Source: an uncultured Gaiellaceae bacterium | Lineage (GTDB): Bacteria > Actinomycetota > Thermoleophilia > Gaiellales > Gaiellaceae | Length of the DNA: 64,000 nt | Assembly: GCA_963850995.1 (NCBI GenBank) | Contig: CAWKNQ010000017.1 | Span: 11,115 to 75,114, forward strand | Reading direction: 5' to 3' | Shown: positions 11,199-53,088 of the stretch, piece by piece | Layout: each line of letters begins with the position of its first letter | How positions within the stretch are numbered: the stretch's first letter is position 1 | Position numbers and translations under genes: made by a program | The notes under the pieces: generated by a model | The model's input: the letters and a program-made list of their open reading frames with translations, nothing else | Database searches by the model: none | What the model was told of the DNA's origin: nothing

Positions 11199-13289
11199 CT
11201 GTCGCAGCTCGCGGAACAGCCGCTGCATCGCGCATTGGGCCTCACGGACCGCGAGTTGACGCGTATCGTCGAACTGCTCGGGCGCGAGCCGAACCACTTC
11301 GAGCTGGCGGTCTTCTCGCTCCTCTGGTCGGAGCACTGCGGCTACAAGCACTCGGCCCTCCTGCTGAAACGGCTTCCCTCCTCGGGGAAACGCGTGCTGC
11401 AGGGCCCCGGTGAGAATGCGGGCGTCCTCGATCTCGGCGACGGCGAGGCAGTCTGCTTCAAGGTCGAGAGCCACAACCACCCGTCCGCGGTCGAGCCCTT
11501 CCAGGGGGCGGCGACCGGGGTCGGAGGGATCCTGCGCGACGTGATCGCGATGGGCGCGCGGCCGATCGCGCTTCTCGACGGGCTCCGCTTCGCCGACGGC
11601 GACCCGCGTTTCGACCGTGCCGTCGCCGGGATCGGCGCCTACGGGAACTCGGTCGGCGTGCCGACGGTCGGCGGCGAGGCGGTCTTCGACGACACCTACC
11701 GCGACAACGTGCTCGTGAACGCGATGTGCGTCGGCCTCCTGCCCGCCGACCGCGTGACGCGCGCCGCTGCGAGCGGCCCCGGTCGGCTCGTCGTCCTCTA
11801 CGGCGCGACGACCGGCCGCGACGGGATCGGCGGGGCCTCGGTGCTGGCGAGCCAGGAGCTGGGCGAGGAGGACGCCGACAAGCGCCCAAGCGTCCAGGTC
11901 GGCGACCCGTTCACGGGCAAGCGGCTGATCGAGGTCTCGGTCGAGCTGGTCGAGTCGGGCCTCGTCGAGTCGCTCCAGGACTGCGGCGCGGCCGGCCTTG
12001 CCTCGTCGCTCTCGGAGATGGCACGCGACTGCGGGATCGACCTGCGCCTCGACCGGGTGCCGCTCCGCGAGGAGGGGATGGAGCCGTGGGAGGTGATGAT
12101 CTCCGAGAGCCAGGAACGGATGGTCGCCGTCGTCCGCCCCGAGATGCTCGACGCGGTCCTCGCCGTCTGCGACCGGTGGGAGCTCCACCGCGCCGTCGTC
12201 GGCGAGGTCACCGACAGCGGCCTCCTGCGCGCGCTCTGGGAGGACGAGGTCGTGGGCGAGATCCCGGCGCGCCTGCTCACCGACGAGTGCCCGCGCTACA
12301 CCGTCGAGCCGAAGCCGCGCGAGGAGCCAAGTAACAGTCTGTTACTTGGTGACGGTGACCGCCCGGCCCACACCGACGCGCTGCTCGAGCTGCTCGCGTC
12401 GCCGAACGTCCGCAGCCGCGAGCCGATCTACCGCCGCTACGACCATCTCGTCGGCTCCCGGACGGTTCGCCGCCCCGGCCTCGACGCTGCGGTGCTGCGG
12501 CTGCGGCCGGGCTACCGCGGCCTCGCCGTCTCGCTCGACGGCACGGGGCGGATGGGCCGCCTCGACCCGCGCACGGGCGGCGCGCTCGCCGTGCTCGAGG
12601 CAGCCCGCAACGTCGCCTGCACCGGCGCCGAGCCGCTGGGGCTGACCGATTGCCTCAACTTCGGCAACCCGGAGAAGGGGGAGATCGCCTGGGAGCTCGG
12701 TGAGTCGATCGAGGGGATCGCAGCGGCCTGCGAGGCGCTGCGCATCCCGGTCGTCTCCGGCAACGTCTCGCTCTACAACGAGACCGACGGACGCGCGATC
12801 GACCCGACCCCGGTCGTCGGCTGCGTCGGCCTGCTCGCGGACGTGCGACAGGTGCCGGGCGCCTGGCGCGAGGGCGACGTGATCCTGCTCGCGGGCGCCT
12901 CGCCGGTCGCGCTCGCGGGCTCCGAGTACCAGGCGCGCTACGGCGAGGTCGGCGGCCGCCCGGCGCGGCTCGACCTGGCGGCCGAGGCGGCGCTCGTCGA
13001 GTTCCTCTGGCGCGCGGCGCCGCAGTGCTCGCTCGTGCACGACGTCTCGCACGGCGGCCTCGCCGTCGCTCTCGCCGAGTCGGCGCTTCACTCCGAGCTG
13101 GGCGCGGACGTCGCGCTGCCGGAGGACCCGCGCGCCTGGTTCGGCGAGGGCGGCGGCCAGGCGGTGCTCGCCTGCGGGCCCGAGGTCGCGAACCGGCTCG
13201 GCGGCGTCCCGCTCCGGCGGCTCGGGGTCGTGGGCGGCGGGCGGCTGCTCGGACACGAGCTCGACGCGCTCAGGGACGCGTACTCCTGA
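11199..13289 (+). CDS. purL: Phosphoribosylformylglycinamidine synthase subunit PurL (FGAM synthase II)
   Basis: HRALGLTDRELTRIVELLGREPNHFELAVFSLLWSEHCGYKHS...ESHNHPSAVEPFQGAATGVGGILRD...GGASVLASQE.. is diagnostic. The start is uncertain: there is no ATG/GTG near the conserved N-terminus, and the candidates are CTG 11199 and TTG 11235. Confidence 0.9.
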   Translation: MSQLAEQPLHRALGLTDRELTRIVELLGREPNHFELAVFSLLWSEHCGYKHSALLLKRLPSSGKRVLQGPGENAGVLDLGDGEAVCFKVESHNHPSAVEPFQGAATGVGGILRDVIAMGARPIALLDGLRFADGDPRFDRAVAGIGAYGNSVGVPTVGGEAVFDDTYRDNVLVNAMCVGLLPADRVTRAAASGPGRLVVLYGATTGRDGIGGASVLASQELGEEDADKRPSVQVGDPFTGKRLIEVSVELVESGLVESLQDCGAAGLASSLSEMARDCGIDLRLDRVPLREEGMEPWEVMISESQERMVAVVRPEMLDAVLAVCDRWELHRAVVGEVTDSGLLRALWEDEVVGEIPARLLTDECPRYTVEPKPREEPSNSLLLGDGDRPAHTDALLELLASPNVRSREPIYRRYDHLVGSRTVRRPGLDAAVLRLRPGYRGLAVSLDGTGRMGRLDPRTGGALAVLEAARNVACTGAEPLGLTDCLNFGNPEKGEIAWELGESIEGIAAACEALRIPVVSGNVSLYNETDGRAIDPTPVVGCVGLLADVRQVPGAWREGDVILLAGASPVALAGSEYQARYGEVGGRPARLDLAAEAALVEFLWRAAPQCSLVHDVSHGGLAVALAESALHSELGADVALPEDPRAWFGEGGGQAVLACGPEVANRLGGVPLRRLGVVGGGRLLGHELDALRDAYS
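12327..12349. repeat. 23-bp low-GC perfect palindrome CCAAGTAACAGTCTGTTACTTGG (copy 1, central T), inside purL
   Basis: Read directly from the sequence. It is translated in frame as PSNSLLLG within a variable PurL linker. Confidence 0.9.
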
Positions 13290-41996: not shown

Positions 41997-43334
41997 ATGA
42001 CGCCGCAGCGGCGGACCGCGCTCGTCTCGATCGTGGCGGCGGCGACGCTCGTCGCGCTCAAGCTCGTCACGGGCCTCGCGAGCGGCAGCCTCGGGTTCGT
42101 CTCCGAGGCGCTCCACTCGGGCACCGACCTGGTCGCCGCGCTGCTCACGTTCTTCGCGATCGGCGTGGCGGTGCGGCCGGCGGACGAGCAGCACCAGTAC
42201 GGGCACGGGAAGGCAGAGCACCTCGCTGCGCTCGGCGAGGCGACCGTGCTCGCGCTCGTCAGCGTCGCCGTTGCCGCGCTCGCGGTCGCACGGCTCACGG
42301 GCGCCGCGGAGCACTCGCTCGACCCGGCCTGGTGGGTCTTCGTCGTCGCCGTGGTCGTGCTCGCGATCGACCTTTACCGCACGGTGATCTCGCTCCGGAC
42401 CGCCCGGCGGTTCAACAGCGAGGCGCTGCGCTCGAACGCGCTCCACTTCGCCAGCGACTTCGCCGGCACGCTGGCCGTGCTCGCCGGTCTCGTCGCGGCG
42501 GCGGCCGGCTTCCCGGAGGGGGACTCGCTCGCGGCCCTCTTCGTCGCCGCGCTCGTGCTTCTCGCCGCCGGCCGCCTGATCCGGCGCAACGTGGACGTGC
42601 TCATGGACCGGGCCCCGGCGGACGCCGAGGCGGCCGCGCGGGCTGCGATCGCGCGGATCGAGCCGCCGGTCTCGCTCTCCCGGCTCCGTCTCCGCCAGGC
42701 GGCCGGCCGGACGTTCGCCGACGTCGTCATCACGGTCTCTCCCGAGGCCGCCGTCGGCCAGGGGCACGCCGCGGCCGACCGCATCGAGGCCGCGCTGGAG
42801 CGGGCGCTGCCGGAGAGCGACGTCGTCGTGCACGTGGAGCCCGACATCGACCGGGCTGCGCTGCGCGAGCGTGCCCACGCGGCCGCGCTGACGGTGCCGC
42901 GCGTGCGCGAGATCCACAACCTCAGCCTCGTCTCGCTCGACGGCGTCACGGAGCTCTCCCTGCACCTGAAGCTGCCCGGTGAGCTGCCGCTCGAGGAGGC
43001 GCACGACATCGCGGAGCAGCTCGAGCGGGCGATCGTCGGCGCCGTTCCCGAGATCGCGTCGGTGCAGACCCATCTCGAGCCGCTCGCAGAGGCGGGGCCA
43101 GGCGAGGAGGTGGAGGCGGAGGAGCTCGCGGCCGCGGTCGAGCGGGCCGCGGGCGGACCACCGCGCGCGCTGCGGCTGTTGCGGACGGAGCAAGGGGTCG
43201 TCGCCTTCGTCACGCTCGGGCTCGACCCAGCGTCGACGCTCTCCGACGCCCACGCCCGCGCGAGCGAGGTCGAGGAGCGCCTCCGCCGCGCCCGCCCCGA
43301 CGTCGCCGACGTGATCGTCCACACGGAGCCGTGA
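41997..43334 (+). CDS. Cation diffusion facilitator (CDF) family transporter with a long C-terminal extension
   Basis: ATG at 41997. SGSLGFVSEALHSGTDLVAALL...YGHGKAEHLAAL...HFASDFAG..; the cytoplasmic-domain segment VVVHVEP is duplicated later as VIVHTEP. Confidence 0.85.
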   Translation: MTPQRRTALVSIVAAATLVALKLVTGLASGSLGFVSEALHSGTDLVAALLTFFAIGVAVRPADEQHQYGHGKAEHLAALGEATVLALVSVAVAALAVARLTGAAEHSLDPAWWVFVVAVVVLAIDLYRTVISLRTARRFNSEALRSNALHFASDFAGTLAVLAGLVAAAAGFPEGDSLAALFVAALVLLAAGRLIRRNVDVLMDRAPADAEAAARAAIARIEPPVSLSRLRLRQAAGRTFADVVITVSPEAAVGQGHAAADRIEAALERALPESDVVVHVEPDIDRAALRERAHAAALTVPRVREIHNLSLVSLDGVTELSLHLKLPGELPLEEAHDIAEQLERAIVGAVPEIASVQTHLEPLAEAGPGEEVEAEELAAAVERAAGGPPRALRLLRTEQGVVAFVTLGLDPASTLSDAHARASEVEERLRRARPDVADVIVHTEP

Positions 43335-43945
43335 GGCTCTGCATGTTCACGCCCGCCGAGGCCGCCCTCGAGCGGGGCTGGCCTGGGCGGATCGACGGCG
43401 ACACCGTGATCCAGCTGGCTGCGCAGACGCTGCAGGCGTTCTTCACCGGAGGTTTTACGGCGCGCGAGCACGCCAGGTACCTGCTCGCCGACGTGCTCCT
43501 GCGGGCGCCGGTGCTCGAGCCGCCGGCCGTCCGGCTCTTCGACGGCCCGGACGAGTTCTCGTTTGCGAACCCGGCCGCGATCCGGTCGCCGGGAGCGGTC
43601 GTGGCGCGTCCCGAGGGGAGGCTCGACGTCGCGATGCGGCTCGCGGCATTGATCGGCTACGACGGCGAGATCGCCGGCTTCACCGGTCTTGCGGAGTGGC
43701 GCGCCCCGGAGCTCGTGCCGCCGAAGGACCGCGACTTCGCCCTGCTGCTCGGCCCGGTCGTGGAGACGGATCTCGACGGCGGGCCCGAGTGGGAGACGGC
43801 GCGCTCGCTTGCGGCCGCGAACACGCGCCTGCGGCCGGGCGACTTGCTCGGCGGGCCGGTGCTCGAGCTGCGCGAGGACGTCCCGAGCGGCCCCGTCGAG
43901 CTCGTCTTCGCCGGCCTCGGCCCGCTCCGCGCGACGGTCGCTTGA
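43331..43945 (+). CDS. Short divergent FAH-family-like protein
   Basis: MRLCMFTP...GWPGRIDGDTVIQL resembles the FAH N-terminal domain, and ...TRLRPGDLLGGPV resembles the FAH C-terminus. It lacks several catalytic motifs, so the call is weak. Confidence 0.4.
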   Translation: MRLCMFTPAEAALERGWPGRIDGDTVIQLAAQTLQAFFTGGFTAREHARYLLADVLLRAPVLEPPAVRLFDGPDEFSFANPAAIRSPGAVVARPEGRLDVAMRLAALIGYDGEIAGFTGLAEWRAPELVPPKDRDFALLLGPVVETDLDGGPEWETARSLAAANTRLRPGDLLGGPVLELREDVPSGPVELVFAGLGPLRATVA

Positions 43946-45167
43946 CTACCTGCAGGTGCTCGGTGCCGGCTTGCCGGCGAAGCGGTCGGCGATCCAGCTC
44001 GACGACGTCGCGGCACGGCGACGTGTCCGGCGGCGAGGTGAGCGATGCCGGGGATAGAGGCGGAGCTGCGACGGTCTCGCCCTGCTCGCAGAGCTTGTCC
44101 ACGAGCCGCTTCGTCAGGTCAGGCGGCGATGATCGGGTCTTCAGTCGCCCTGGGTGATCAGGATCGGAGCACCGGTCCGTGGGTGCCTCCGGGCGTGTTC
44201 TGCATCGAGGATCGTCTTCCACGGCTCCGCTTCCCACGGCGGTGTGTGGAGGAAGGTGAGGTCGAGCGCGAGCGCGGCGCGGCACCGAGGCGAGGATCTG
44301 CTTCTGGTTGTAGAGGCAGTTGCTCGGCGATCCTGCCGACGAGCGGGCGTGCCACGGGCGTGACGATCTGGTCGAGGCTGGCGTCGTCGTAGACGCTCGC
44401 CCAGGACTGCATCGCCATCGCGATCAAGATGCGGCCGACGGTGGTCTCGATGTTGACCGCGAAGAGCTCCTCGAGATTCGGCACCGGGGCTCCGGCCGCG
44501 ACCCCGACGAGGGTCAGCTCGGGTGCGTAGCCGGAGGCGAGCTGACCGGTGAAGAGCGATGCGTGCCCGCCTTGGGAGTGGCCCCACACAACGAAGTCGG
44601 CGCTCGCATTCGCCTGGGTCAGGTTGCGGGCGGCGCGCACGCTGTCCAATGCGTTCATGGCCTCCGCGTCGCCGACGAGGTACGGGTGCGGACCGGGTGT
44701 GCCGAGCCCCTGGTAGTCGCTGGCCGCAACGACGTAGCCGGCTTTCAGGAGCTCGGCGCCGCCCTCGAAGAGCAGCGGCTGCTGCTCCGGGTTCGTGACG
44801 AGCGAGGGCGCGCAGTTGGACGCGACGCCGACGGTGCCGTGCGTGTACGCGATGACCTTCCGGCCCTCCGCGGGAGGCTCTCCGTGCGGCACGACGATCA
44901 ACCCACTGACGGCCGCCGGGTTGCCGTCGAAGCCGGTCGACTTGTAGAGCACCCGGTAGGCGGTCGCGCCGGGGTAGAAGCCCTCGACGACCTCGCGGCG
45001 GATGATCGTTCCTGGAGGCCCTCGGGAAGAGGCGAGGGTGCCGAGTAGAACGCTCCGGGATCGGCGCGGCCGGCGCGATCGATGGCGACGCTGATCGCTA
45101 TTCCGCGAGCGAGAGGAAGGCCACTGCGCTGATCAGGCGCAGGACGCGGCCAGGTGCCGACTCTCAC
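43946..45167 (-). pseudogene. Secretory-lipase (LIP) family alpha/beta hydrolase, multiply frameshifted
   Basis: The pieces, read in gene order, lie in ORFs 44898..45167, 44158..44952 (YKSTGFDGNPAAVSGLIVVP...VVWGHSQGGHASL), 44141..44587 (PWKTILDAEH...APILITQGD), 43680..44285 (LVDKLCEQGETV) and the tail ...WIADRFAGKPAPSTCR* ending at 43946. At least 4 frame switches are needed. Confidence 0.7.
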
Positions 45168-47267
45168 GGCTCGTCTCTACTGCGCGCTTCAGCTCGACGG
45201 CGTTATGAAGCTGATCCCGCCGTTAGCTGAACAGAACCGCGAGGACGACGTCGCATCTGTAGGACAGGGCTGAGATATCGGCCACACGTTTTGTTTGCTC
45301 TGGATGAGCTGTTCGTCGTCGCTGCTGAAAGCGCTGTAGAGCTTGATGGCGCTGCCCACGACGAGCGCGATCGATCGTGATCGCAGTGCTCGGATCGTCA
45401 GACCTGGCCATTCCGGCTAAGGTCGGTGATCACAGATGCTGACGAACTGCGACCTCCGGCTGCGAAGCGGTGCGGACGATGAAGATCGCCGAGGCCGGAA
45501 CGACAGCGCCGCCACGACGAGAACGCGAGGATGTCAGCGATCGGACGGATCTGCGATCAGCAGCCACCAGAGCGACGTGCGGCTCGTCCGTCGAGTCTCT
45601 CGGCGGTGTCGATCCATTGCTGTCTCATAATCAGCTAGGTGTTGTTAGCTGCAATTGAGAATACTGTGTGATTCTGAAGATAGGGTAGATGGATAGGTTT
45701 TGCGATAGATAAGGTGTCGGCGGGTGGCACGGCTGCACTGTCGCTGCGGGAGTGGCGAGGTTTCGTCGGTGACGGTGAGGGTCGCTTTCTCCAAGGCGTA
45801 AGTCGTCTACTGTTGCGCTATGGTTCGTCCTGTGTTAAGCTGCGTGCTATTAGCTGATCTGACTGCGGTGGAGCGATGTTTGAGGTAGCGACAGAGGTGC
45901 TCGCTGGAATGCTGCTCCGTCGTTTAGCGGCGGTGTGACCTCCTCGATCTCGGTGAATTTCGCGAGTGGGACGAGCGTGCAGCTCGGTGCGCTGACAGCT
46001 CGTGCTCCGGCGACGTCCTGCGGCTTTTTTTTTTAGGCTCTTCGTTTTGTGTGTGTCTCTTTTTTCTTCTAGGTCTACGTCGCTATTGTTATCAATGCCG
46101 ATGATGTGTGCTGAGTGTTAGTTGCTGGTGTTGAATGCTGAGATTAGCGGAGGTGTTGTGTGCACGCGGCTCGCTGATCTCTTCTACGCCGACGCTGTCG
46201 ACGGCAGGGAGCGAGCCTCTTTTGCCGTCTGGCGTTCTAGAATGTCATTGCTCGCTAGTGACGGTTTGGATGCGAGATGATTGCGCTAGTGGTGCACTCG
46301 ATCCTCTGCGATCGACTGGATCGAGGTATTTTTGATGTGCTTATATGCTAGCTTTCTCTACATCGAGATCGGAGTGCGGCGTTGCAGATCGATAGGTTGC
46401 GCTGGCTGAATCTCGGTTCGCTACCTGTCTTCCGCAGGATTTACTCTGTTCTGTGCGTCTTTTCTGTCTGCTGTGGTCTGTTACTTCGTCGGCGGCTTGC
46501 TTTCCACGTTTTGCTTGTGTTTCGGTGCTGCTGGCCTATGTTTTGTGTGCGCTTGCTGCGCTAGTTTCAAATGGGTTCGACGAGCTCTGACGGTATGCGT
46601 CCAGTTCGGGGAGCTCTCAATGATCTGTGTGACCGCCGGTTCTTAGCGCTTGCGCTCTCGGCCGCGCTGCCGCTCCGCGTCTGTGTTCGATCGAGCCATT
46701 TCGTTATGCGTAGGGCTTGCAGTGAGATGTTAGGGCGGGTTGTGATCGAAGGGCTAGAGATCGAGCTGGCCGCGCTCTCGCTAGTAGCTAGCTGCGGAGA
46801 GTGCGTTCGTCACGTGCCGCTTTTTCGATCCTCGTCGCGAGCGCTTGTCTGACTGGTACGTCGCGCTCGGCGCTTTCGATATGGAGCGCGTCGCTGCGTC
46901 GACTCTTGCATAGCTGATGGCGTGTTGATGCGTAAGGCTCGCGTGTGCTGACGCGATGCGGCTCGCTTACTCTGTAGCGAGTACCGGTGCGCGCTAGTAC
47001 GATACTGACGAGAAGCGGTCGTGAGCACCTCCGCCCTTGATTTCCGACGTGTGCGCGTCGTCTTCGCGCGCTGCTCGCGCGCGCGCCGCTGCCCCTGTCC
47101 GTTCCACCGCGAGCGTCGGCATCGCCTTCCCGAAGGGCAGCGCCTGCGCGAGCGTCACGCGGCGTGCGCCGCTCCGCCCTGCCCTAGAACGCTGGCTGAG
47201 CGTGACTCGAGCTCCGCGGCTGCGCTGAGCGGCGCGCCGGCTGCCGCGCGCTCCGCCTAGCGTAGGA
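45168..47267. other. ~2.1 kb ORF-poor, low-GC, strand-skewed non-coding block (function unknown)
   Basis: No ORF longer than 93 aa is present and none has a recognisable family. Stops occur in all frames. Hand counts over eight 60-nt lines between 45661 and 46680 sum to A59 C98 G155 T168 (of 480). The block contains T10 (46025-46034) and GT/CT-rich tracts. GC returns to about 70% after ~47040. Confidence 0.6.
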
Positions 47268-50200
47268 CTATGGCAGCAGTCGCTCGAGCAAGGTGACGGT
47301 GTCGAGCCCTGCGTCGGTGCGGCCGCGGTCGCGGCCGGGGCCGCCGTCGACGGCATCGCGGATCCGGTCGCGCGCCTGGATCATGTCGGCACCGCGGCCG
47401 CCGAGGAGCCGGTCAGCGCCCGGCCCGCCGGTCAGTGTGTCGTCGCCGAGCGCCCCGTAGACGCTGTCGTTGCCGCGCCCACCCTCGACAGTGTCGCCGA
47501 CCGGCGCCGCCCCAGACGGCGTCGTTACCGAGACCGAGCGTGATGCGGTCGTTGCCGGGGCCGGCGCAGACGAAGTCGTTACCCGACCCCATGTCGACCT
47601 GGTTCGTGCCCATGCCGGTGAACACCTTGTCGCGTCCCGGCCCCGCGTCGAAGGTGTTCCGGCCGGCGTCTCCGAGGAGGAGGTCGTTGCCCGGCCCGCC
47701 GGAGAGCGCGTCGTCTCCCGGGCCCGCCGACCACCGTGTCGTTGCCGGCGCCGCCGGAGAGCGTCTCGTTGCCGGGGCCGCCGTAGATGACGTCGTTGCC
47801 GCCGCGGGCGTCGATCGTGTCGTTGCCGCCGCGGCCGCAGATGACGTCGTTCCGGAGGTGCCCTGGAGATTGTCGTCGCCCGGGGTGCCGACGATCGTGC
47901 AGCGCGCGTTGCCGGCGACGAGCGGCTCGACCTGCACGGTCGCGGTGGCGCGGTTGTCGGCCGGTGTCGGATCGGGTGTCGCGGCGGCGACCGTGGCGGT
48001 GTTGTCGTACGTTGCCGGTGCTGTGACTGCGATGACGGTGATCGTCACGCGGGCGGTGGCGCCGGCGGCGAGGTTGCCGAGGGCGCAGGTGACGGTCTGC
48101 CCGGACAGCGGGCAGGTGCCCTGCGAGGCGGTGGCGCCGGTGAGCAGGAACCCGGTGGGCAGGGTGTCGGAGACCTGAACCGCCGGCGCCGGGAGGCCGC
48201 CGCCGTTCGAGACCTCGATCGTGTAGGTGAACGGGTTGCCCACCGTCGGCGCTGCCGGGTGTGGCGCGCTTCGAGACCGTGAGGTCGAACGGCAACGGCG
48301 CGTAGCGCGGGCGCTACGGCCGAGAGCGGCGGCGCCACGACCTCGAGAGCGCGCGGCGGTGTTGTCCGACGGGTTCGGATCGGCCACGGAGGATCCGCGC
48401 CGTCGCACTGTTCGTGACGGTGCTGCCGATCAAGCTGGGCTGGGCGCGCACGGTGATCTCGAGGTCCGCGGCTCTCGCCGGCGGGGCAGCGTGCCGACGT
48501 CGCAGGTGACGGTCTGGCCGGCGGCCGTGCAGCCGGCGCTGCCGCTGACGAACTCGACACCGGCCGGCAGCGTGTCCACGACCTGCACGGCCGTGGCGTC
48601 CTGCGGCCCGCCGTTCCGCACCGTCAGCTGGAACGTCACGTTCGTGCCCGCTTGCACCGGCGCCGACGGTCCGGTCTTGGTCAGCGACAGGTCCGCGCTC
48701 GGCGCGAGCGGCGTGAACGAGACCAGAGCGTCGTTGTTGACGAAGTCGGGCTCGAAGCTGAAGACGCCGGTGATTGGGAGGGTGTTACTCGAGAGCGCGA
48801 GGTTGTCGACCTGGGTGCCGGCGCTGTCGGGCGCCAGCGTGCTCTCGATCGTGATCACGCGGTCCTCGCCGGGGCCGAGCTGGGGGATCTCGCAGAACAC
48901 GATCGGGGACCCCGGGGGGAAGCCGCTGTTCTCCCTGGTCGGGTCGTACTCACAGATGCCTGTCCCTCCGGAGATCGAGATCGCAGTTGGGGGCTTCTGC
49001 AGCGCGTCCGGCAGGATGTCGGCCACCACCATGTCCACCGTTCCGGGCCCGTCGCTGTGGAGGGTGAGCGTGTAGGTGACCGGGCCTCCCGCGACCGGCT
49101 GCGCAGGCGCGAAGGTCTTCGTGATCGAGGTCTCGGCCCACGGCACCGTGGAGATCGCGGCCGACGCGCTGTTGTCGTTGGGGTTGATCTCGGTGCCGAC
49201 CGGGGCGGACACGGTCGCGGTGTTGTTCAGCAGCGCGTCGGACGGATGGGTGTCGAAGCTATTCGCAATCGAGAGCTGTACGTCGATCGTGACCGGCGCC
49301 TGGCCTGGCGGTGATCGTGCCGAGGTTGCAGTCGGTTACCGAGCACGTGCCCTGCGAGGGAGTGATCGAATCGAGGATGAGGGGCGCGTCGAAGATCTCC
49401 GTGAGCTGCACGTTGGCGGCGTCGGCGACGCCGTTGTTGGTCACCTCGATGCGATATGTGATCGGATCGAGGAAGAGGAGGTAACCGACCGGCGTGAAGT
49501 TCGGCGTGCTGGTCACGACCTTCTCGACGTGCAGGTCGATCGCCGGCTCGCTGACGGCCCCGGCGTCGGTGAAGGAGTTGTTGTCGGGGTTGCCGTCGCT
49601 CGGCGCCTGCAGGGTCGCCGTGTTGCTGAGCGACCGGGCTGCGCGCTCGGGCTGACGAGCACGGGGATCGAGATCGGCGGATAGTCGCTGCCGGCGGCGA
49701 GCGCGTCCGGAGCGCGTGCACGTGACCGTTGTGCCCGACGGTCGTGCAGGCCCAGCCGGCACCGGTGGCCGGGCCGGTGAGGGTCAGCCCGGGGGGCTCG
49801 ATCGTGTCGGTGACCGTCACCGCCCCGGACGTCGGCCCCGCACCGACGTTGCTGACCGTGATCGTGTACGTGCTGGGCTGCCCGGGCGAGAGCGTCGGCG
49901 AGTGCGTCTTGCCGATCGCCAGATCGGGAACGAGCACGTTCGTGACGGCCGGAGCTGTCGCCACCGTGCTCGGAACTCCGGTCGTCGCGGCCTGGAAGGC
50001 GAACTCCGCCGTGTTCTCGATCGTCGCTCCCAACGCCAGCCCCGACGTGGCGACCGTGACCTGGAAGCTCACCGTGGCGCTCGCGTTCGGGGCGAGCGTG
50101 CCGCCCGTAGCTGGCCGACGCGCCGGTGCCGAGGCGCACCACCACGCTGACCGCCGGCGAACTCGCCGAGATCGTCGCCGGCGGCGTCGGTGAGCGGCTG

Positions 50201-51458
50201 CTCCGTTGAGCGTGATGCTGCCGGGGACGAAGACGGTCCCAGCCGGGAGCAGGTCGGTGAACGTCGTGCCGGTGGCGCCGTCCAGGCCCGTGTTCTGCAC
50301 ATTCACCGTGTACGTCAGCGTGTCGCCGAGATTCGCCGTGGCGTTGATCGACGGTCTTCGTCGCGGTGATCCTGGGCGCATACAGGTCGGTCGCGATCGT
50401 CACCACGCCCGGCTGGTAGGCGTCGCCGCTGGTCGAGAGCCGCACCTGCGTGCTCGTCTGCCCGTTGCCGAGCACGTTCGTCGTCCTGAACAGGTCGGCG
50501 TCGTAGCCGAGGTTGTTCTGGAAGCTCGGCTTGCGCGAGGTGACCAACACGCCGGCATTCGAGATCGTCGCGTTGAAGACGTTCGAGTTCGACGCCGAGG
50601 TCGCCGGTGGTCCCGGGTTGACGGCATTCGACAGTGCGGTAAATGCCCCCGACGCACCCTGGATCGCCGCGCCGTCGCCGTTGGTCCCAAGATCCCCCTC
50701 GTAGGCGACGATCCCGACCGTCGAGGTCACCGGGCCCGTCAGCGGCGTCTGGAAGCCGCTCAGCGGGATCGTCACCGTCCCGCTGCCGCGTGACGGTCTG
50801 CATCCCGTCGAACACCGACAGGTTGCGGCTCGGCGCCGCCGGGTCCCCGTAGGCGACGACGAGCGCCCAGCCGCCGGACTGCGCGTCGCTCTTCCCGGTG
50901 CCGAGCTGCACGTCGGCGGTCCAGTAGGTTCCCGCGCCCGCGCATCGCGACGATCGAGGTGACGTCGACGAACCCCTGGTACTGCGTCGACGACGTGTCG
51001 ACCGGTGCTGGGGCGGTCAGCGTTGTGTAGGTCGCGTCGCCCGGGGCTTTGAACTTGACCGTGTTGTTCGCGGACGGGTTCTTCGCCGGCGACCCTCCCG
51101 TGCCGGGGGTCAGCTTGCCGCCGAAGTACAACCCGGCGAACAGCACCTTGGCCCCCGCCGGCATCACGAGGTCCGCGGAGCTCGAGTCGAACGTGGCCGG
51201 GTCGCTGTCGGCGTCGATCCACGTCATCGTCCGGTCGTTGTTGTTGAGGCCCGTGCCCACACCGTCGCGGACACTCGGACAGGCGGCGAGCGCGTCCAAG
51301 CAGGACATGATCGAGTTGGCGGCGATCGTGATGTCGCCCTGCGTGTTGACGCTGAAGCGCGGGCCGAACGCTCGGTCCGCGGCGACGTCGGGCGGCACTG
51401 CACCGACGACCGCGCAGAGCGCCAGGAGCACGAGCAGGCGAGTCCCGTACCTGGGCAC
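47268..51458 (-). pseudogene. Large secreted adhesin-like protein: N-terminal domain, DUF11-type repeat domains, C-terminal hemolysin-type Ca-binding (RTX-like) repeats; heavily frameshifted
   Basis: GTG at 51458 is followed by a signal peptide (RLLVLLALCAVVGAVPP), then FSVNTQGDITIAANSIMSC. DUF11-like units follow ([80 protein letters not shown]). Next come [41 protein letters not shown] and the tail ...DGGPGRDRGRTDAGLDTVTLLERLLP*. The pieces are spread over at least 9 ORF fragments in three frames. Confidence 0.7.
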
Positions 51459-51549
51459 GACGCACCGAGAGTAGAGACAAAAGGAACACGGGGTTGGGCT
51501 GCGCGCGACGAGCGCCGCTCCACGATGGGCGGCGTCAGTGCGGCCGCCG

Positions 51550-52056
51550 TCACGAGCACGAGCTGCCACATGGGAGGCGAGCCGGCCACCAGGTCGGCGC
51601 GGCGGAACGCGTGCACGGCGAGCAGAAGCACGGCGATCCCGAGAGCGCAGCTCGCGCGAGCGCGACTGCGGCACGCCGGATGAGCAACGCGCCGACGGCG
51701 AGCACGATCGCGGCCAAGTAACAGACTGTTGCAAGGGTGAAGAGCGTCTCGAGCCCGGCCGGCGCTTTCCCCTCCGGCCACGGGGCGGGCGGGATATGCC
51801 GCTCGAGCCCCTGGACGAAGCCGAACACCGTGACGATGCCGAAGAGAACGAAGAGCGCGGCGAGCCGCGGGTGCGGCCTCGGGGCGAGCTCGTTGAAGCG
51901 CGCGGCCACCTCCTCGGTCGTGCCGAAGCGCTCCATCGCCTCCTGGTCGCCGCCGTCGTCCAGCAGGTGCGCCTCCACCTCCGCCAGGATCCGGCGCCTG
52001 CGCCACGGGGAGACGCGAAGCTGCGCGGCGAGGGCGGCGAGGTAGTTGTTGATCAC
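51550..52056 (-). CDS. PadR-associated membrane protein (DUF1700-like N-terminus); C-terminal part probably frameshifted near ~51650
   Basis: A GTG at 52056 overlaps the PadR stop (GTGA). INNYLAALAAQLRVSPWRRRRILAEVEAHLLD is followed by TM segments. After ...AVALARA a better TM-like continuation (ALGIAVLLLAVHAF...) lies in another frame. Confidence 0.5.
   Translation of the reverse strand: MINNYLAALAAQLRVSPWRRRRILAEVEAHLLDDGGDQEAMERFGTTEEVAARFNELAPRPHPRLAALFVLFGIVTVFGFVQGLERHIPPAPWPEGKAPAGLETLFTLATVCYLAAIVLAVGALLIRRAAVALARAALSGSPCFCSPCTRSAAPTWWPARLPCGSSCS
51713..51735. repeat. Degenerate copy of the 23-bp palindrome (CCAAGTAACAGACTGTTGCAAGG, 3 mismatches in one arm)
   Basis: Read directly. 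It lies inside the membrane-protein coding sequence and is translated as LATVCYL within a predicted TM helix. Confidence 0.8.
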
Positions 52057-52361
52057 GCGACGACCGCCCCGACTGCGTTTGCGAACACGAGCCACTCCTC
52101 GCGCCTACGGGCGAGCTCGCGCCGCCCGCTTCGCGTGAGCGAGTAGACGCGGCGGCGTCGACCCGACTCTGTCGACCAGCGGCTCGCGACCACGCCGGCC
52201 GCCTCGAGCCGGTGCAGTGCGGGATAGACGGTTCCCTCTGGCAGCTCGAACCCGCCGCGACGCCGCAGTGTTTCGATCACGGCATAGCCGTGGAGCGGCT
52301 TGTCCGCGAGCACCGACAACAGCAGCAGGTCGAGGTGGCCCTTCAGCTGCTCCGCCTTCAT
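52053..52361 (-). CDS. PadR-family transcriptional regulator
   Basis: ATG at 52361. The protein reads MKAEQLKGHLDLLLLSVLADKPLHGYAVIETLRRRGGFELPEGTVYPALHRLEAAGVV. Confidence 0.85.
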   Translation of the reverse strand: MKAEQLKGHLDLLLLSVLADKPLHGYAVIETLRRRGGFELPEGTVYPALHRLEAAGVVASRWSTESGRRRRVYSLTRSGRRELARRREEWLVFANAVGAVVA

Positions 52362-52379
52362 ACCTAGCAATTCTAGGTA
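52361..52379. promoter_or_regulatory. Palindrome TACCTAG-CAATT-CTAGGTA abutting the PadR start codon (candidate autoregulatory operator)
   Basis: Read directly. The 7-bp perfect arms form a low-GC island. Confidence 0.45.
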
Positions 52380-52407
52380 AAGCGCACGCGGAGCGCAAGT
52401 CCGGCGC

Positions 52408-53088
52408 CTAGTAGTCGGGAATGAAGCTCGACAGCCCCCGACTGCGCAGGCGGTCTGCGTACTCGGCCTTGAAGGCGCTCTTCGCCCGTGACGCTTCGCG
52501 CGACGCTTCCAGCTGGGCCTGCCAGAGCCGGTCGGCCGCGGCGTCGCCGTCGTAGCGCGCGACGATCCACTGCCGCACGAGCCGGTCGTCGGCGAGAGAG
52601 GCGGTGATCGAGTCGCGCAGCAGCGCGAGGGCGTCCGAGAGCTCGTCCGGCGTCGAGAACGCCGCGAGCGCCGCATGCAGCCCTTCGCGCTGCTGCACGA
52701 TCCTGTCGATCTCGTGAAGTGCCGCCGCGCGTGCGATTTCCGGCGGGCTGGACTGGACACGGCTGATCAGCGAGCCGAGGTTGCCCTTGGTGCGCGCCGA
52801 CTCGGCGAGGAGCTCGTTGAGATTGCCCAACGCTCGGTCGAGCGACGGCGTCTGAGCCGACCTCACGACGGCCGGTTGCGTGCGCGCCGGCTCGGTCTGA
52901 GCAGGCGTCGCGGACGACCCGATCACGCCGGCCTGGACGAGCACGGTCGCGAGCCCGACGAACGAGCCGACGACCGTGGCGAGGCCCGCAAGCAGCTTCG
53001 GTGCGCCGGTCCAGAACGACGCGTCCGGCGACGCAGCAGTAGGCGTGACGTCGACCGAATCCGGCGGCAATGAGTGTGCGGTATCCAA
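52408..53088 (-). CDS. Membrane-anchored hypothetical protein
   Basis: A 226-aa ORF with one TM segment (LLAGLATVVGSFVGLATVLV) and a helical C-terminal domain. Confidence 0.5.
   Translation of the reverse strand: MDTAHSLPPDSVDVTPTAASPDASFWTGAPKLLAGLATVVGSFVGLATVLVQAGVIGSSATPAQTEPARTQPAVVRSAQTPSLDRALGNLNELLAESARTKGNLGSLISRVQSSPPEIARAAALHEIDRIVQQREGLHAALAAFSTPDELSDALALLRDSITASLADDRLVRQWIVARYDGDAAADRLWQAQLEASREASRAKSAFKAEYADRLRSRGLSSFIPDY

Follow-up and report, generated by a model that had tools for sequence, protein, structure and literature searches.

Why a stretch of bacterial DNA between a lipase and an adhesin gene should be so rich in T and so poor in C on one strand, with its purines at normal levels, is the question raised by this locus. 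The window analyzed here, i.e., the whole stretch of 64 kb, was described in an earlier note as holding a block with reduced C, raised T, and G and A near the local baseline, a pattern that the computed composition confirmed. The T-rich core (45629-46978) consists of A 0.136, C 0.228, G 0.324 and T 0.312, its T content lying more than 5 SD from the remainder of the window. In 300-nt windows, T reaches 0.309 in the tract against an outside mean of 0.147 (sd 0.029, maximum 0.267) and C falls to 0.232 against 0.352 (sd 0.028), the corresponding values being 0.323 against 0.358 for G and 0.136 against 0.143 for A. The identity of the plus-strand pyrimidines, C versus T, is the sole odd property of the core: T/(C+T) is 0.578 versus a baseline of 0.289, and A/(A+G) is normal (0.297 versus 0.289). 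Previous hand counts (A/C/G/T 12/20/32/35%) had given the right direction but, having used the most extreme lines, exaggerated the magnitude, which for the whole core is 13.6/22.8/32.4/31.2%. The excess of TAG (20.7/kb in the tract versus 3.2/kb) and CTAG (7.9/kb versus 0.34/kb) noticed before was recovered as well, TpA/ApT is up from 0.45 to 0.88 in the core, and the longest ORFs (66, 60, 57 and 93 aa) do lie on the plus strand, because A is scarce there. A T10 run occurs inside the core at 46025-46034. Elsewhere in the 64 kb, and in ~160 kb of related loci, T/(C+T) and A/(A+G) stay below 0.5 in every 500-nt window (maximum 0.44). Nothing comparable to the core occurs in ~220 kb of the lineage, and the adjacent pseudogene-like DNA is free of such drift.

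The limits of the tract were set by maximum-likelihood segmentation on T/(C+T), which places it at 45607-46978 (left limit 45573-45636, right limit 46926-47076) with a ratio of 0.58 within and 0.33 outside. The edges are sharp, the left one coincides with the end of homology to two conspecific contigs, L010 and L013, and T/(C+T) is even along the tract (sd ~0.076 over 100-nt bins versus a binomial expectation of ~0.067). The skew once ascribed to the full 2.1-kb block thus holds for ~1.37 kb of it, but neither for 45168-45600, which merely has a lower GC (~0.6) and is strand-symmetric, nor for 46979-47267, which has a normal GC of 0.72. Likewise, the block had been taken as ORF-less and without a credible gene; this is true of the core, which has no coding signal, but 45463-45628 is the 5' end of the lipase. 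The features of the locus are as follows.

43947-45075, minus strand: body of a LIP-family secretory lipase (Pfam PF03583), ending at the left edge of the variable island.
45076-45462, no strand assigned: insertion 1 (387 nt), GC 0.61 and no strand skew, which splits the N-terminal coding region of the lipase.
45463-45628, minus strand: original 5' end of the lipase (ATG 45617-45615) with the last bases of a 19-nt spacer, homologous to L010 and L013.
45629-46978, plus strand: T-rich core, recognized by its composition and merge signature; coding, RNA-family and repeat signals are absent.
46979-47267, no strand assigned: GC-normal tail of insertion 2 (GC 0.72), with abundant CG repeats and short inverted repeats.
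47268-51479, minus strand: DUF11/RTX adhesin (Pfam PF01345, PF00353), with its stop (CTA on the plus strand) at 47268-47270.
51480-52401, minus strand: PadR regulator (52053-52361) and HAAS-domain membrane protein (51550-52095) (Pfam PF03551, PF22564).

The Pfam assignments bear out that the flanking genes encode a lipase and an adhesin, both on the minus strand. In L010 and L013 the adhesin stop and the lipase ATG are 19 nt apart, and it is in this spacer that the window carries insertion 2, of 1,639 nt (45629-47267), the core being its first 1.35 kb. Alignment to the syntenic region of relatives, which the earlier note had proposed, identified the tract as a strain-specific insertion, absent from L010 and L013. 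Insertion 1 and the GC-normal tail (46979-47267) are also missing from both contigs, and the PadR/HAAS module is missing from L010. Three more contigs have no island and hence no tract either, so that the tract is recent here; at least four structural alleles exist at the locus in the population. The lipase of the window and its intact orthologue of 396 aa in L010 are 93.7% identical over an alignment with 17 gap openings, and the adhesin is 95% identical to its L010 counterpart, with many frame changes. Only 2-3 C-to-T differences from L010 were seen, in the last bases of the common spacer. Neither terminal inverted repeats nor a target duplication were found at 45629 and 47267, a local search gave no source for insertion 1, and the ORFs of the block, like the PadR and HAAS proteins, had no match in exact look-ups.

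To what kind of DNA the core belongs was addressed with a composition-corrected k-mer signature, compared with that of the host in four letters and after merging letters. In four letters the signature of the core is abnormal (chi2 91; baseline median 19, maximum 57). Merging C and T brings its score to ~7 versus a baseline median of 8 at K=2 and to 40 versus 33 at K=3, shuffled core sequences scoring 52±15, and every merge other than C/T leaves the signature abnormal. The merged signature separates lineages, with medians of 7 for the window, 10 for a Solirubrobacterales MAG and 23 for a Pseudonocardia plasmid, and of 40 for phage B5, 52 for Pf1 and 67 for E. coli, the core standing at 7.4. This C/T-merge test provides a cheap way to tell converted host DNA from foreign DNA.

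The conversion implied by these values amounts to ~40% of the plus-strand C and ~0% of the minus-strand C; the plus-strand C-to-T pattern claimed previously is upheld by the merge test, with a fraction of ~40% in place of about half. In-silico conversion of host genes at the implied rates reproduces the observed base composition. By composition rather than by alignment, then, the changes are limited to plus-strand C-to-T in a bounded tract. The dinucleotide context, whose computation had been suggested, showed a disfavored 5'-G and no restriction to TC: implied conversion is 0.27 after G, 0.50 after A and 0.48 after Y, and 0.61 before A, 0.42 before G and 0.32 before Y, the highest value (3'A) being only 1.5-2 times that in other contexts. 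Context dependence is therefore weak. The TC, CC or WRC contexts of DddA, APOBEC3A/B, A3G and AID were considered and rejected on the same 5' values (A 0.50, Y 0.48, G 0.27), and the weak context would suit a context-relaxed ssDNA enzyme, SsdA for example, or non-enzymatic deamination.

In summary of its properties, the core is an insertion with a strand- and base-specific anomaly, a host-like signature and sharp limits. The best reading of it, in which we place moderate confidence, is a one-strand deamination-type footprint on host-type DNA. As cause we infer deamination of a single-stranded intermediate: one strand would have been exposed as ssDNA to cytosine deamination with little sequence-context preference. 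Candidates for this intermediate are a displaced or incoming strand during insertion or recombination, an R-loop or D-loop, or, in the template of the lagging strand, a gap of Okazaki size. Across the whole window G exceeds C on the plus strand, which is presumably, on this basis, the lagging-strand template, the strand known to be deaminated at replication forks. The C-to-T change may be fixed in the genome, or it may exist only in a few molecules read on one strand that stand behind a poorly supported assembly. The fuller version, a heritable kataegis-like footprint in which a context-relaxed deaminase of a toxin or defense system attacked inserted host-type DNA at an ssDNA stage, converted ~40% of its C and had the change fixed by replication, is on present evidence unlikely.

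Several other origins have to be weighed against a deamination footprint. The remains of a protein-coding gene or IS element that C-to-T hypermutation alone had silenced, as the earlier note considered, would fit the composition, and a 1.6-kb insertion is about IS-sized, yet the core has no period-3 signal, not even the G and A periodicity that conversion cannot erase. A C/T-blind codon model (G/A-blind for minus-strand genes) gave 3.7 and 3.9 for the core, the level of shuffles, against 12-14 for frameshifted pseudogenes and a median of 18 (minimum 8.8) for simulated C-to-T genes. No Pfam domain, transposase included, was found in the six frames of the tract, and together with the missing terminal repeats and target duplication this makes such a relic very improbable. 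Since coding signal is absent where ~90% of the local DNA is coding, the parent sequence was non-coding or the tract carries dense indels too. An integrated remnant of an ssDNA replicon, either a filamentous phage or a plasmid of the rolling-circle type, would owe its bias to a packaged strand that is T- and G-rich by nature. In its favor, B5, a filamentous phage of high GC (A 0.129, C 0.263, G 0.380, T 0.228), is skewed the same way, and small hydrophobic ORFs all lie on the T-rich strand; these ORFs, however, are an automatic product of T-richness. B5 and Pf1 show period-3 in most 300-nt windows and the tract in none. The six-frame fragments of the tract, concatenated, had no homologue among 5.8 billion proteins, the block had no BLAST match among plasmids and phages, one exact 27-mer had no counterpart in viral contigs, and neither a Rep nor an integrase gene lies nearby. 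This suggestion of the earlier note must also be regarded as highly improbable. Its third suggestion, a long non-coding RNA, belongs with a broader possibility, namely a natively T-rich, A-poor non-coding insertion (untranslated or R-loop-prone spacer, or unstructured ncRNA) shaped by slow C/T drift, through chronic strand-biased deamination or through selection, and not by a discrete conversion event. The tract is gene-free, has a positive GC skew and begins in an AT-rich stretch, a host-like signature would also be expected of long-resident DNA of the lineage, and transcription is known to bring C-to-T change to the non-template strand. Against this, L010 and L013 have the same adhesin-lipase pair without the tract, which the three island-less contigs lack as well; it shows no sigma-70-like promoter and its folding z-scores (-2.7 to +1.9) are centered on 0. 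Promoters and terminators were examined and dropped as an explanation. The window has no gathering-level Rfam match, only a sub-threshold asX3 at E<=1 that lies outside the core. Nothing similar occurs in the ~220 kb of the lineage, and the adjacent pseudogene-like DNA has not drifted in this way. We hold a native T-rich insertion to be quite unlikely, and an ncRNA locus in particular found no support.

The strongest competitor is a pure assembly or sequencing artefact, i.e., junk, a chimeric long read or systematic C-to-T miscalls that entered the consensus at a strain-heterogeneous locus of low coverage, so that this DNA would exist in no cell. The contig looks like the product of a long-read metagenome assembly, related contigs having Flye-style names and many 1-nt indels between them. 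About 17 small insertions relative to L010/L013 are found in the ~150 nt of the lipase 5' end adjoining the tract (alignment score 153.5 versus 35±6 for shuffles), and the lipase body has many 1-nt non-homopolymer insertions relative to the intact orthologue, L010 and L013 agreeing with each other. Because of these dense small insertions the assembly is unreliable here, and because at least four structural alleles exist the coverage per allele is probably low. The block is moreover unique, with no second copy in any database searched. Other evidence opposes an artefact: junk would not look host-specific in its A/G/Y k-mer signature, and we know of no generic long-read error restricted to C-to-T with zero G-to-A, as an error of that type would have to be. 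The immediate right flank is clean (3 differences from L010 over 47268-47500), and third codon positions account for most substitutions elsewhere in the island, which are therefore real divergence. The remnant of an ONT adapter at and around the T10 run was considered and rejected, since the resemblance (z=5 versus shuffles) is not significant (P 0.10 and 0.58) with the T-run and local composition taken into account. In an error-rich and hypervariable locus an artefactual or single-molecule origin still has to be reckoned with; a pure artefact is unlikely in our judgement.

The deamination footprint was also examined through its expected partners, a parent sequence and an enzyme. The reverted search recommended earlier, run as BLAST with C and T merged, covered the window and 12 loci and recovered no homologue, unconverted parent or duplicate. 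Local alignments that tolerated gaps, made to the window and the loci, gave nothing above shuffled or reversed controls, permissive scoring being uninformative. In JGI metagenomes no match turned up for a Y-degenerate 26-mer, nor for an exact 24-mer taken from the GC-normal tail, and no repeats were found in the core. The conversion is therefore deduced from statistics and not from alignment. As to the enzyme, six-frame translation of the 64 kb contained no credible H/C-x-E...PCxxC deaminase motif (the single match is apparently off-frame), and no toxin or immunity gene was seen in it. The literature search gave no documented conversion of 40% density in a natural bacterial chromosome.

Several known systems resemble a one-strand footprint of this kind. 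Kataegis by APOBEC/AID and G-to-A hypermutated retroviral DNA share with the core a kilobase tract, C changes on one strand and sharp limits. Both are attributed to deamination of exposed ssDNA, and the conversion density of hypermutated proviruses is comparable to that of the core. These enzymes, however, have a strong TC, CC or WRC preference where the core only disfavors 5'-G, and the host of the core is a bacterium, with neither parent sequence nor deaminase found in the sequence searched. Fungal RIP is similar in that C-to-T change is highest before A (3'A 0.61), with the rise of TpA/ApT from 0.45 to 0.88, and in that non-essential inserted DNA is affected. RIP requires duplicated DNA and a eukaryotic sexual cycle, whereas no duplicate of the core was found in the window and 12 loci and its CpA preference is mild. 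The BaDTF toxins SsdA and DddA mutate bacterial DNA by C-to-T change. The substrate of SsdA is ssDNA, in which any base may precede the C, pyrimidines being modestly preferred (PMC12494967). Its relaxed context resembles the weak context in the core; DddA, in contrast, acts on dsDNA at 5'-TC. No toxin or immunity gene was seen in the 64 kb. Deaminase toxins were proposed to leave signatures that can be mined in genomes and metagenomes, and the portions of that work drawn on here document mutagenesis of surviving target populations rather than a clustered one-strand tract (PMC7901873). In the laboratory, R-loops and D-loops mapped by non-denaturing bisulfite and read on single molecules appear as long, strand-specific, partial C-to-T tracts, which lie on the displaced strand and end sharply (10.1101/640094; PMC7695462). 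The pattern of the core is the same, but footprinting is a deliberate chemical treatment and nothing indicates a treated sample.

If real and heritable, the core would be a natural case, in a bacterial genome, of cytosine-deaminase hypermutation that is dense and strand-coordinated, tying interbacterial or defense deaminases, or the exposure of ssDNA during recombination, to a visible genome change. It would then be a genomic deaminase signature of the kind proposed for mining (PMC7901873), and would provide a search image for metagenomes, namely an anomaly that vanishes upon C/T merge. If it reflects instead lesion-laden molecules or a poor consensus, strain-variable loci in long-read MAGs may hold kilobase pseudo-features and false pseudogenes.

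The genes on both sides of the tract gave two further observations. A protein search with the adhesin C-terminus returned distant matches only, though L010 encodes a close homologue; the repeat words had saturated the search, so that its lack of close matches is not reliable. For the lipase, the genome collection contained only a 77% identical counterpart, which occurs in a Solirubrobacterales MAG in a different gene context.

On the plus strand between about 45,600 and 47,000, T and C account for 0.31 and 0.23 of the bases (G 0.32, A 0.14), compared with 0.151 and 0.349 over the window (G 0.358, A 0.143; ~71% GC). In 300-nt windows, T exceeds the rest by over 5 SD and C falls 4 SD short of it, with G and A near baseline, and the computed profile thus agrees with the C loss and T gain proposed in the earlier note. 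Maximum-likelihood segmentation on T/(C+T) (0.58 inside, 0.33 outside) placed the limits of this tract at 45607-46978, with 2-log-likelihood support intervals of 45573-45636 on the left and 46926-47076 on the right. The 2.1-kb block (45168-47267) first described as anomalous is thereby reduced to these limits: neither 45168-45600, where GC is just lower, nor 46979-47267, of normal GC, is skewed. No 500-nt window in the remainder of the 64 kb, nor in related loci totalling ~160 kb, has a comparable profile. The reported excess of TAG and CTAG was also recovered (6-fold and 23-fold), and the longest ORFs of the tract are indeed all on the plus strand, which follows from the scarcity of A there.

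Conspecific ENA metagenome contigs with 93-99% identity were retrieved through an exact match to the neighbouring HPPD protein. Three of them (L001-L003) lack window 43947-52400 entirely, the breakpoints falling between two convergent genes. A lipase search added contig L010, which has 99% identical flanks and, at the corresponding site, the adhesin-lipase island with an intact lipase of 396 aa, and contig L013, where the lipase is preceded by just the last ~170 nt of the adhesin. In both, only a 19-nt spacer separates the adhesin stop codon from the lipase ATG. Homology between the window and L010 reaches the adhesin stop codon and resumes at ~45628, just before the lipase ATG, so that the intervening sequence is an insertion in this spacer, and the left edge of the T-rich tract coincides with the insertion junction.

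47268-47270, minus strand: adhesin stop codon
45617-45615, minus strand: lipase ATG, by homology with L010
45629-47267: insertion of 1,639 nt, T-rich core (45629-46978) plus 289-nt GC-normal tail
45076-45462: second insertion, 387 nt, interrupting the lipase N-terminal coding region
51480-52401: PadR-HAAS module, absent from L010

Between a 204-aa ORF (43331-43945) and a convergent 226-aa ORF (52408-53088), at least four structural forms occur among conspecific contigs, and the site is a recombination or indel hotspot:

empty site
adhesin and lipase
lipase and 170-nt adhesin remnant
PadR-HAAS, adhesin, 2-kb block and lipase

The core was compared with 212 local 1.4-kb chunks, taken from both strands, in its di- and trinucleotide usage after correction for composition. 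With four letters the core stands apart (chi2 91; local median 19, maximum 57), whereas with C and T merged into one letter (Y) it is indistinguishable from local DNA (7 vs a median of 8 at K=2; 40 vs 33 at K=3). Every other pairwise merge leaves it abnormal, the G/T merge alone being borderline, with the same outcome on repetition. The match is not trivial, since shuffled core sequences remain abnormal in the merged alphabet (52±15), and the merged signature discriminates lineages.

C/T-merged signature chi2 (K=2); medians of chunks, except the core
Core: 7.4
Window: 7
Solirubrobacterales MAG: 10
Pseudonocardia plasmid: 23
Filamentous phage B5: 40
Pf1: 52
E. coli: 67

T/(C+T) in the core (0.578 vs 0.289) implies conversion of ~40% of plus-strand C, whereas A/(A+G) (0.297 vs 0.289) implies none for the other strand; the anomaly is confined to cytosines of one strand, which read as T. 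Context dependence is weak (implied conversion after G 0.27, A 0.50, Y 0.48; before A 0.61, G 0.42, Y 0.32), and conversion varies little from end to end, T/(C+T) in 100-nt bins scattering about as much as binomial sampling predicts. Simulating the same rates on real host genes reproduced the observed base composition.

The pattern agrees with deamination of cytosines on one strand of DNA of the host type. The underlying process is of a known kind, its chemistry being that of APOBEC/AID kataegis and of hypermutated retroviral DNA, and also that of bacterial deaminase toxins and of ssDNA footprinting in the laboratory. Enzymes like DddA, APOBEC3 and AID are disfavoured by the weak context; an ssDNA deaminase with relaxed context, such as SsdA (PMC12494967; PMC7901873), would be compatible with it, as would non-enzymatic ssDNA deamination. 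Several routes to the single-stranded state may be inferred. Because the tract starts at a junction, the strand could have been exposed during an insertion or recombination event. It might also have been lagging-strand template: of the two strands the plus strand is richer in G across the window, and the tract, at 1.35 kb, has roughly the length of an Okazaki fragment. An R-loop or D-loop could also have exposed it, and footprints of this form have been made experimentally (10.1101/640094; PMC7695462). In the literature searched, no natural bacterial genome was found to be described with a kilobase-long tract of this density, confined to one strand and lying at an insertion junction.

The earlier note had offered a relic gene or mobile element, an ssDNA replicon fragment and a long non-coding RNA as origins, none of which was borne out. 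None of G, A and Y shows three-base periodicity in the tract; for G and A, conversion does not explain the lack, as plus-strand C-to-T changes cannot alter these bases. Codon-model scores (model trained on local genes, conversion-blind alphabets) were:

Core: 3.7 and 3.9 (plus- and minus-strand models), shuffle level
Intact genes: 23-24
Frameshifted lipase and adhesin: 12-14
Simulated genes, C-to-T only: median 18, minimum 8.8

No Pfam domain was found across six frames, no homologue of the six-frame fragments among 5.8 billion protein clusters, and no repeats or terminal inverted repeats in the tract. Negatives of the word-indexed protein search are not trustworthy for repeat-rich queries: the adhesin C-terminus missed its close L010 homologue, probably through repeat words saturating the 8000 candidates. 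A relic gene or IS element altered by C-to-T only is contradicted by these direct tests and is very improbable. Adding indels to the simulated converted genes at the density seen beside the tract lowers their score to 4.7; dense indels thus erase the codon signal, and the substrate may have been a noisy copy of coding DNA. A remnant of an ssDNA replicon is just as hard to credit, since the tract has no phage or plasmid similarity and lacks the clear coding periodicity of phages B5 and Pf1. The tract gave no Rfam match, tRNA or promoter-like site; neither of its strands folds into more RNA structure than expected, and its terminator-like sites do not exceed chance frequency. These missing RNA and promoter signals, together with absence from conspecifics, speak against a long non-coding RNA and make a natively T-rich non-coding element improbable. 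Across the entire 64-kb window, neither a tRNA gene nor a gathering-threshold match to any Rfam family was found.

Sequence quality bears on whether the pattern is genomic. The related contigs have Flye-style names and many 1-nt indels between them. Against L010, the core flanks show ~3 gaps in 7.6 kb, and the island 17 in 1.8 kb and 40 in 4.2 kb; 58-63% of island substitutions fall at third codon positions, so its divergence is partly genuine. Between adhesin alleles (window 47268-51479), L010 C stands opposite window G 45 times and the reverse 5 times, mostly at third codon positions; G is the most frequent inserted base (28/62), and GC skew is 0.075 vs 0.037. Compared with the intact L010 ORF, the window lipase has many extra single bases outside homopolymers (43960-44300, 45463-45628). 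Beside the tract (150 nt, 45463-45628), ~17 small insertions, 4 deletions and 9 substitutions separate it from the sequence on which L010 and L013 agree. Bacterial pseudogene decay is deletion-biased and substitution-rich, and this insertion-dominated pattern rather suggests a poorly polished consensus. The supposed lipase and adhesin pseudogenes may owe their broken frames to assembly or consensus errors instead of to biology.

Poor local quality and the uniqueness of the block favor a pure artefact, which is nevertheless unlikely, if far from negligible, given the host-specific merged signature, the exclusively C-to-T change, a clean right flank and a non-significant adapter test. A single-strand read of a deaminated duplex would likewise give pure C-to-T; if only a single read, or a few of the same orientation, underlay the consensus here, the pattern might not represent a fixed mutation. 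Heritable hypermutation is also rather doubtful, and is weighted low because no unconverted parent was found (window, 12 loci, JGI metagenomes and protein database) and the locus is visibly unreliable.

Directly upstream of the PadR start codon, the near-palindrome ACCTAGCAATTCTAGGT (52362-52378) may be a PadR operator; it forms a further local cluster of the otherwise rare CTAG. In L001, ~800 nt between a cation-efflux gene and the 204-aa ORF (12457-13257), absent from the window, contain a called 194-aa ORF that may be a tandem duplicate of its neighbour.
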